From positions 62,001 through 126,000 of the forward strand of contig NW_026928293.1 of assembly GCF_032062105.1 (NCBI RefSeq): a DNA stretch of 64,000 bases, read 5' to 3'. Positions 6,499-9,353 of the stretch are shown piece after piece. The position numbers were made by a program, and so were the translations under genes. The notes below the pieces were generated by a model. It was not told where the DNA came from. It worked only from the letters and a program-made list of their open reading frames with translations, and did not search any database. This stretch comes from Saccostrea cucullata (taxonomy: Eukaryota). Position 1 is the first letter of the stretch; each line of letters opens with the position of its first letter.

Positions 6499-8836
6499 AA
6501 TTTTGTATTGTTTTAGTTTTTCTTTGTTTTCATTTTTTCCAAAGTGTTTTAATATTCCAATTATCCCATCCCACCTTTTTCACGGTTTTTTTGAAATTCT
6601 ATTCCACCATTCCGTCCCAGATCTTAACGTCTCGCGGTGGTGTCTAACCTACTACATATGTATATATATTTAAAACATTAAAAAACATTCGCTTCTACAA
6701 ACACATCCAGACAGACAAATCGATAATTTATACTTGATCAAATAAAACGTGTCCCAGCATATGGAATGTTATTAGGACTTTAAGATATGATAATGAGTTT
6801 ATCTATATGTGCAATATTGAATGTTATTGTCGTCCGATTTATTACGCAATGCATGGTTTATCTCTGTGCATACACACTAGTACTTCAGAACGACCAGAAA
6901 GTGTATATGTCTGCTAACCATGTAACCATGTTTTTGTTAGGTAGGTATATAAATATTGATATCCGTGAGGCATTGTATTGCTGTATAGCACTTCCTGATT
7001 CTCATACGAGCGAGAACTGACACTGATTTGTATAATTTTATCATGAATATTGTTAACAAAGTCAAGATTAAGAACACCTGGGATGGTTAATTTGTCCAGG
7101 TAAGTGGTTGTGTGTTGTTATATTTATTATCTATATATTTACTGAGCATTTCAAAAATGTTTGAATTGTAGTGAATGCATGTTTTAAAAAAAATCTATAA
7201 AGAGCTGGCCGATTTTTCAAAAATGCGTAATTACCTAGTATATACAACTATATATATGAATTACTCCAAACACATTGTACGCAATAGTTTTGTTATTTGT
7301 GTCATCTAAATAGATATATACTCATGTAAATCTAAATAGATATATACTCATGTAATTTTTGTTGTTAGCCATTTGTCGCCCTTAATTATGCTTATTATAA
7401 TAATTGCCATGCAGTGTCAATTTATAATATTTCTAAATGTTATGTATAATCTTCATTAATGATGGTGGCTCTACATATATATAGAGTAGACTTAGGATTC
7501 TTAGGGTGAAATTTTAGGACCTCCAGATTTCTTCCTGTCAGGCTACCTTAATATCTAGTGCTATTTTTAGGTTCATTGATAACAACAAAAATATTAAACT
7601 TTAAACATGTATTTTTCCAAGCAATACTTCATTTGCTCCTTAAAAAGCAAGTAATCAATCTACTATAGGAAAGATCAAGGTAAGTATAAGGCATCAAAAT
7701 AACTTTTTTATACTGTCGTTATTAATGAAACAAAAGAAAAATTAACTTCATAATAACCACAGACACTTATTTCCGTCAAAAATTCAATCCATAAATACTT
7801 AATGGGTTTTGTTATTTTACTATGGGTTGAAAAAAATTACAGAAAAAAGTGCCTGTAATTCTAATTAGTATTCCAATGTACATCTATCGTTGTACTAGTA
7901 TATAGTCTGATATTATTAATATTGATTTTAATTTCAAAAATATATATAAATCCCCAATACTTCCCAGCTTTCAGTTGTAGGCGACAGACATAGAAAACAA
8001 AACAACCAGAAGTACATTCGTCCGCATAAATCATAGACACAGCATAATTTCGGTAAACAAAATTGTTAAAATCGCATAAAATTTGTTAAAAGGACATTAT
8101 TCAAATGCGTTTAAAGTGCAATATTGAATAAATTTCTCAATACAATATGCATGCCAGGGTAACAATTTTGAATTAGAGGCAGCTTAATTTAAGCAAGTGT
8201 TAGAGTTATTGCTCTTTGCACCTTCTTTTGTTTCTTTGCTTTGTTTCCTTTCGAGAACTTTTCACAAAATCTAATACCGAAACGAAATACACCTTGTCGG
8301 TGTTGAGCTGCAAATTTAGACCAGTACTCACACTTGCAGCATAGCGCGTTGGAAGGGGATAAAAATAGGTCAGTAAGAAATGGTAAAAAAAAAAACAAAA
8401 AAAAAAAAAACAAACAAACAAACAGAAACCAAAAAAGATGCATTATAATAATTATGTTATGTTAGAGTAAACGCAATATTGTCCTAAATAAAAATCAGAA
8501 CAGCTTGTGATTATATAAAATATGACAAATTAATATATGAGTATCTCACGGTAATTAAAATTAACATTAGAATTAACTAATGCGTGTTTTTGTCTACAGC
8601 ATATATTTGAAAATCTTTGACCAACAATTCATCTTTAAATTATGATAGGCTTAAATCAAATTAGGTATTTACAAAGATTTATATAATTATCTGTAACTTC
8701 AGGAAGAATGTGAATTAAAATTTTTTGGATGCGGAAAGACGGAGATCCATTGAATGTTTCTCTTATTTTATCGGGATATTTGAAAATATATAAACATACT
8801 ATATCTTAATTTATCTTCTTTTTCAGATTTATCAGG

Positions 8837-9299
8837 ATGCTGACTATTCTAGGATTCATCGTTCCATTGTTAATCATTCTGGTTATTTTTGCTGTATCAT
8901 TCCTTTCAAATTTTGCGACCAGCAAAAAGGTAACTACAACTTATTTCTTTTATCGTCTTAATTTATTTTCGCTATTAATTTCAATCGGGATCAAAATACC
9001 ATAAATTAGAGGTCCTTTTCATTTCGAGTTTCCTCTTTTTCAGTAAGAAAGATCAACTTATCAACTTCAAGTAGGCAGATTTATCAGGTTGCAAATAGAC
9101 TAAAGAGAATTTAATAATATCAGTAAGTCTAATTCTCTGCCCCAAAGTTATATTGCTTTGAATTTTGTTTTTTCATGTTGTTTATATGTATCAGTAAACT
9201 GAGTAAAGTGAGTTGGGGGTGTTACATGTTATATGATGAATATCACAAAGAAAATTTATGCTTTATGTTGATGTTTTTTTTTCTCTCTAGATTTTTTGA
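8837..9299 (+). CDS. Putative spliced upstream ORF / 33-aa transmembrane micropeptide in the TRAPPC2 5' leader
   Basis: Exon 8827-8929 (TTTCAG acceptor, AAG/GTAACT donor) has an ATG at 8837. Splicing to the acceptor at 9290/9291 gives MLTILGFIVPLLIILVIFAVSFLSNFATSKKIF*, with the stop at 9297-9299, 54 nt before the TRAPPC2 ATG. Confidence 0.5.
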
Positions 9300-9353
9300 A
9301 TATCAGCACACCTAGGAGAATGAAAAGATCATAAGTATAAAGAATAGAAAATC

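Follow-up and report, generated by a model that had tools for sequence, protein, structure and literature searches.

Microproteins encoded by upstream open reading frames (uORFs) have been described on several human bicistronic mRNAs, the examples in the main text of PMC13303939 being SLC35A4 (STREMI, or SLC35A4-MP), MIURF-MIEF1 and PYURF-PIGY, as well as ASDURF-ASNSD1. STREMI is a membrane microprotein of 103 aa that is found vertebrate-wide and documented by ribosome footprints and proteomics, and its uORF also controls the downstream coding sequence (PMC13303939). In Drosophila, Sloth1 and Sloth2 arise from a bicistronic transcript whose two ORFs each encode a small, conserved peptide linked to mitochondrial complex III (PMC9681215). 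Conserved uORF microproteins have been catalogued mostly in mammals and flies. Sarcolipin, sarcolamban and OST4 are single-helix regulators or subunits of ∼30–40 aa that have genes of their own.

Here, we describe a 31-codon uORF in the leader of TRAPPC2 (sedlin) from Saccostrea cucullata, contained in a stretch of 64,000 nucleotides (contig NW_026928293.1, positions 62,001 to 126,000) that we refer to as the window and from whose first letter all coordinates are counted. As with STREMI/SLC35A4, the uORF is conserved and occupies the leader of a housekeeping gene to which it is unrelated; unlike STREMI, as presented in the main text of PMC13303939, it is 31 aa long, occurs in three lineages and is known from sequence and transcript alone. 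TRAPPC2 is absent from the main text of that paper. The locus resembles Sloth1/Sloth2 in that an invertebrate mRNA would carry more than one product, small peptides included, and differs from them in that a tiny ORF lies ahead of a standard 142-aa gene. The predicted peptide is comparable to sarcolipin, sarcolamban and OST4 in size, in its one hydrophobic helix and in its short polar tail; the likeness is one of form only, and searches of Pfam, PDB and the ESM Atlas returned no sequence match to them. No prior description of a uORF peptide or bicistronic mRNA for TRAPPC2, sedlin or Trs20, or of an oyster micropeptide, was found in the literature covered, which included few subscription papers.

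The TRAPPC2 locus and its leader

The coding exons of TRAPPC2 lie on the plus strand at 9354-9449, 10067-10214, 10855-10940 and 11956-12054 and encode 142 aa; the first two joints are present in RNA reads. One exon by itself scores 65.6 bits for Sedlin_N, where the cut-off is 23.1 (E 6e-18), in agreement with the TRAPPC2 identity given in the preliminary description of this DNA; the coding sequence starts at 9354. The intron at 10215-10854 (+), which is spliced in reads, resembles a minor-spliceosome (U12-type) GT-AG intron: its donor reads GTATCCTT, and the element TTCCTTAAG is found a short way ahead of its AG. Long ORFs elsewhere in the window, at 41101-44690, 45974-47461 and 33188-33676, are what we take to be a transposon-like group, an F-box/leucine-rich-like exon and a methyltransferase-like exon, respectively.

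The leader exon that holds the uORF spans 8827-8929 (+, 103 nt), with a pyrimidine tract and AG acceptor before 8827 and a GT donor after 8929. Read depth and a contig that joins it to TRAPPC2, both from a related species, bear out the earlier proposal of a well-bounded leader exon. The ORF was said to fill most of this exon, and it does: it starts at the ATG at 8837 and its 31 codons, MLTILGFIVPLLIILVIFAVSFLSNFATSKK, stay open through to the exon end at 8929 (+). The start context is middling, with A at −3 and C at +4. A single-pass helix is predicted at about residues 2-23, followed by a short basic tail, and the best 19-residue Kyte-Doolittle mean is 3.09, in keeping with the long hydrophobic helix claimed at the outset. 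The window DNA is AT-rich; among its 380 ATG-started ORFs of 25–80 aa, two come within 0.5 of this hydropathy, and the uORF is one of them. The exon (by DNA search), the uORF peptide (by protein search) and TRAPPC2 each have a single match in the 1.17-Gb assembly.

Upstream of the uORF exon, a leader exon at 6880-6940 (+), in which 6880 is a placeholder for the 5′ end, is followed by a GTAGGT donor. It contains ATGs at 6907, 6920 and 6928, none of them in frame with the uORF: that at 6920 is a start-stop, and that at 6928 opens nine codons in another frame that overlap the uORF start once spliced. This first exon sits immediately behind an array of ∼180-190-nt units at 3800-6500, which belongs to a common repeat family and to which RNA reads cross-map very deeply. 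Further out, ∼5.7 kb upstream of the first leader exon, an expressed minus-strand exon at ∼1060-1209 opens an ORF starting MATGGHHPFK and thus points to a neighbouring gene directed away from TRAPPC2. A possible optional exon at 8600-8664 (+) has good AG/GT sites and an ATG from which the uORF frame would be lengthened by 11 codons at its start. Finally, the first TRAPPC2 coding exon begins with a non-coding stretch (9291-9353, +) that carries the four-codon uORF MKRS*, previously noted at 9320 and present at 9320-9334.

Transcript structure in a related species

RNA evidence was sought through a run search that listed 24 runs, none of which held more than 0.07 of the words. Five runs were aligned, namely three oligo-dT raw-read runs of one study and two contig sets, and the uORF junction was covered by the three raw-read runs and one contig set. 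The reads come from a related species rather than that of the window: the first TRAPPC2 exon has five differences, all of them synonymous. Joints were listed when seen in three reads or in a contig.

A contig of 794 nt from the X1 set runs through 8825-8929, then 63 other letters, then 9290-9449 and on into the next TRAPPC2 exon, and the raw reads, three runs of another study, agree with this exon chain. Mid-exon depth over the uORF exon is ∼37-45 in runs X18 and X19 and ∼10 in X20, with introns mostly uncovered. Past 8929, the three runs have 26, 22 and 3 loose read ends that fully agree (51/51) on a sequence starting TAAGAAAG; before 9290 there are 32, 26 and 16 (74 in all), at an agreement of 0.99. 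The sequence read past 8929 matches the window at 9044-9122 (+), an exon overlooked earlier that is framed by a pyrimidine tract with a CAG acceptor and by a GTAAGT donor. All listed joints and loose ends therefore run from the uORF exon through the 9044 exon to TRAPPC2, and in the short reads and one contig of this species the uORF and TRAPPC2 share one transcript as the main form. To this extent the suggested bicistronic locus stands. Stops separate the two coding sequences with or without the 9044 exon, and no uORF-TRAPPC2 fused protein was found among proteins of 71-2000 aa, which is weak evidence.

Toward the 5′ side, loose read ends before 8825 match the exon ending at 6940 in all three raw-read runs (48 reads). 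Their agreement is 0.65-0.75, and a consensus this mixed implies a second upstream form or exon. Splicing of the candidate at 8600-8664 is not supported, its depth being 0 in the three raw-read runs; one low-depth contig matches 8634-8678 and continues past that exon's donor. A minority of reads cross the 8929 donor or begin in the intron (8930-8943, 9018-9056), with 3, 14 and 4 reads at 8932 in the three runs and 6 reads at 9056. Such reads suggest that the intron is sometimes retained or that a second donor is used, in which case the tail of the peptide would differ. No difference is listed within MKRS* in the related species, where insertions fall at 9335-9337, just past its stop.

The 9044 exon changes the C-terminus of the predicted peptide. 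Its first three bases (9044-9046) are TAA and supply the uORF stop, and the remainder is non-coding and tolerates indels. Splicing of 8929 to an exon that opens with TAA makes the peptide 31 aa long, ending SKK-COOH. The preliminary description had instead joined 8929 directly to 9291, a junction listed in none of the four runs, and had thereby arrived at a peptide of 33 aa completed by IF* and ending in a KKxx COPI retrieval signal. The peptide of the observed isoform has its lysines at −1 and −2 and lacks the one needed at −3. Dilysine COPI cargo is further marked by a cytosolic C-terminus and by binding to alpha/beta'-COP. The motif requires a lysine at −3 together with another at either −4 or −5, for which arginine is no substitute (PMC3521961). 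Dilysine cargo such as Wbp1 has basic residues near the C-terminus after a membrane helix (PMC3521961), as the uORF peptide is predicted to have; the lysines of the latter, however, are its final two residues in the isoform seen. For that isoform, a KKxx or KxKxx COPI cargo is rejected on the splice evidence together with the motif rule.

Conservation of the uORF peptide

A phmmer search against 1.84 billion representatives gave one match, P0001 (E 2.6e-4), a singleton from a 1454-nt Logan contig that reads like a translation through intron, exon and intron. Residues 56-91 of P0001 match the exon and both its borders (27/36), and 23 of the 31 uORF residues are identical, with the same acceptor phase, start and exon end. 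Its flanks have no clear similarity to the window's introns, giving only weak, scattered matches (best E 0.02). Each of the eight amino-acid changes needs a single base change; all four in the helix replace one hydrophobic residue by another, and the other four fall in residues 27-30. In neutral simulations, an ORF of this length stays open about half the time at the distance of P0001, and an intact ORF with changes as conservative as those seen has a P of 0.003-0.005, a value to be read with the bias towards conservative changes that comes from P0001 having been found by similarity.

Reads from the close relative provide a second comparison. The uORF has no indels there, and the 9044 exon is ∼15 nt shorter. 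Among nine variable uORF sites, six are synonymous and three non-synonymous (V>A, V>F, S>N); the fixed differences comprise three synonymous and one non-synonymous. Against an expected synonymous share of 0.25-0.31, six of nine gives a P of 0.010-0.032, on few sites, and the other two frames each have two synonymous changes of nine. Non-synonymous sites have not diverged clearly less than the neighbouring UTR (P 0.05 for fixed differences, 0.11 for all), and the first TRAPPC2 exon is cleaner than the uORF, with synonymous differences at 5/5. The frame and hydrophobic pattern, whose loss in related species had been named as grounds for rejecting the ORF, are kept in two other lineages, the close relative and P0001. 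These alignments of three lineages favour mild constraint on the protein sequence.

Beyond these lineages, searches came back empty. No homologue was found among proteins of 22-70 aa, either with the window's frame or with a two-sequence alignment; among 149 candidates of 71-2000 aa, P0001 was the only homologue; and none of 335 pattern matches in metagenome contigs was confirmed. TRAPPC2 loci of other eukaryotes were collected from metagenome contigs, giving at least 80, many of them short or near-duplicate. In 49 of the loci listed, the first coding exon could be placed and was taken forward; 30 of these have at least 600 nt upstream and 16 have at least 2000 nt. A tblastn, blastn and profile search of the 80 listed loci yielded nothing significant (best E 0.2-0.8) and hence no homologue of the peptide. 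A scan for an ATG followed by a helix gave one sense match in the 49 upstream stretches among the listed loci, the 31 loci without a located first exon being left out; with the window's locus included, it gave three sense matches, two of them the window's own, and two antisense ones. In one of these metagenome contigs (L057), a 70-codon ORF at ∼127-340 ends ∼40 nt before the TRAPPC2 ATG and encodes what we take to be a relative of DNL zinc-finger proteins; the arrangement may be due to compactness of the genome, to chimerism or to a further two-gene mRNA.

Family and structure databases gave a similar picture. The best Pfam hit to the uORF peptide has an E of 3.5, and no family was found for P0001. 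The best PDB hit (E 0.004) is a bacterial light-harvesting helix, which we read as a generic hydrophobic match, and the ESM Atlas returned unnamed clusters (best 0.85) with no named match. Because the searches depend on five-residue words in common or on exact matches to short patterns, and because ORFs of 31 aa are dropped by gene callers, such blanks are weak evidence; on that evidence, the uORF peptide looks lineage-restricted.

Possible roles of the uORF

The reading we prefer is that the 31-codon ORF in the TRAPPC2 leader is likely translated into a predicted membrane microprotein that is under sequence selection, and that it also damps TRAPPC2 translation; we give this a probability of about 0.58. 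The locus would thus probably encode a lineage-restricted single-pass microprotein on a bicistronic-type mRNA. Scanning ribosomes would pass the tiny ORFs of the first exon or re-initiate after them. Some would then start at 8837, and others would leak past or re-initiate to reach 9354, a split by which the leader would both make the peptide and restrain TRAPPC2. A chain of 31 residues is too short to be targeted co-translationally by SRP. Insertion of the peptide would therefore follow its release, with membranes of the ER or early secretory pathway as the most likely site and with the basic C-terminus in the cytosol. We infer this location from the strong hydrophobicity, and likewise infer a partner: the peptide may pack its helix against another membrane protein, as a small subunit or a modulator, and would do so without a COPI retrieval signal. 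The three ATGs of the first exon, one of which opens an overlapping frame, count against the peptide reading.

The uORF may instead be regulatory, tuning TRAPPC2 output by diverting ribosomes, by stalling them on the hydrophobic nascent chain or through NMD, the last being possible because the uORF stop precedes later exon junctions; the released peptide would then have no job of its own. Such an account fits the narrow distribution and a leader crowded with uORFs that the relative seems to keep, two of the exon-1 ATGs being present in its consensus and MKRS* unchanged. Stalling uORFs that depend on sequence also show amino-acid conservation. However, stalling peptides usually depend on their C-terminal residues, and here the whole helix is conserved whereas the C-terminus is relaxed, with its four changes in P0001, and we regard regulation without a functional peptide as unlikely. 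Less probable by a clear step is that the ORF is a product of chance, the T-rich leader exon that contains it being conserved as RNA, for splicing or structure, and its hydrophobicity a by-product of T-rich codons. The single-base nature of all the changes in P0001, the half of neutral copies that stay open and the non-significant comparison with the UTR would all fit such an ORF. Yet the excess of synonymous changes is confined to the uORF frame, the changes in P0001 are more conservative than those in the neutral simulation, and hydrophobicity this high is rare among the small ORFs of the window.

Two further alternatives concern the ends of the peptide. A minor or tissue-specific isoform that skips the 9044 exon would yield the 33-aa form with a KKxx end and COPI retrieval to the ER. 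Both substitutions in the first nine nucleotides of the 9291 exon (9296 and 9298) are silent in the skipping frame, that at 9298 swapping one stop codon for another; the chance of the pair is 0.02-0.05, for a pattern spotted after the fact. This junction, too, was sampled in no more than one contig set and three runs of raw reads from a single study. Against skipping, no such joint is listed in any of the four runs, at a threshold of three reads or a contig that a rare form could escape. By comparison, 51 loose ends enter the extra exon and 74 leave it, and the 9044 exon of the window itself has strong splice sites. At the exon end P0001 moreover has R-K, in a motif where arginine is not accepted for lysine (PMC3521961); K-K is retained in the close relative. 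We hold such an isoform to be very improbable. Least credible of all is that the exon encodes the C-terminal part of a longer peptide begun in another upstream exon such as 8600-8664. The three codons before the ATG are open and similar in P0001, a variant at 8833 is silent in the uORF frame, and the reads give a mixed consensus on the upstream side. Nevertheless, no in-frame ATG is provided by the main exon upstream, which ends at 6940, raw reads give the 8600-8664 exon no depth, and no longer protein besides P0001 was found among those of 71-2000 aa.

A more ambitious version of the microprotein reading, which we consider doubtful, combines these elements: a lineage-born 31-aa protein recruited into the TRAPPC2 mRNA would serve an early-secretory role with a co-expressed partner, and inclusion or skipping of the 9044 exon would switch a COPI tail off or on. 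If true, it would, within the literature searched, be the earliest described case of a functional bicistronic microprotein from its animal group. In the absence of a KKxx tail, the shared mRNA is the sole tie of the peptide to trafficking, which lessens the surprise of the pairing. If the preferred reading holds and the uORF is translated, the mRNA of a core ER-Golgi tethering subunit would carry an unannotated, apparently lineage-restricted membrane peptide that lies below gene-caller cut-offs. The locus would then offer a clean test case for the birth of small genes in leaders and for the load that they place on the translation of housekeeping genes.
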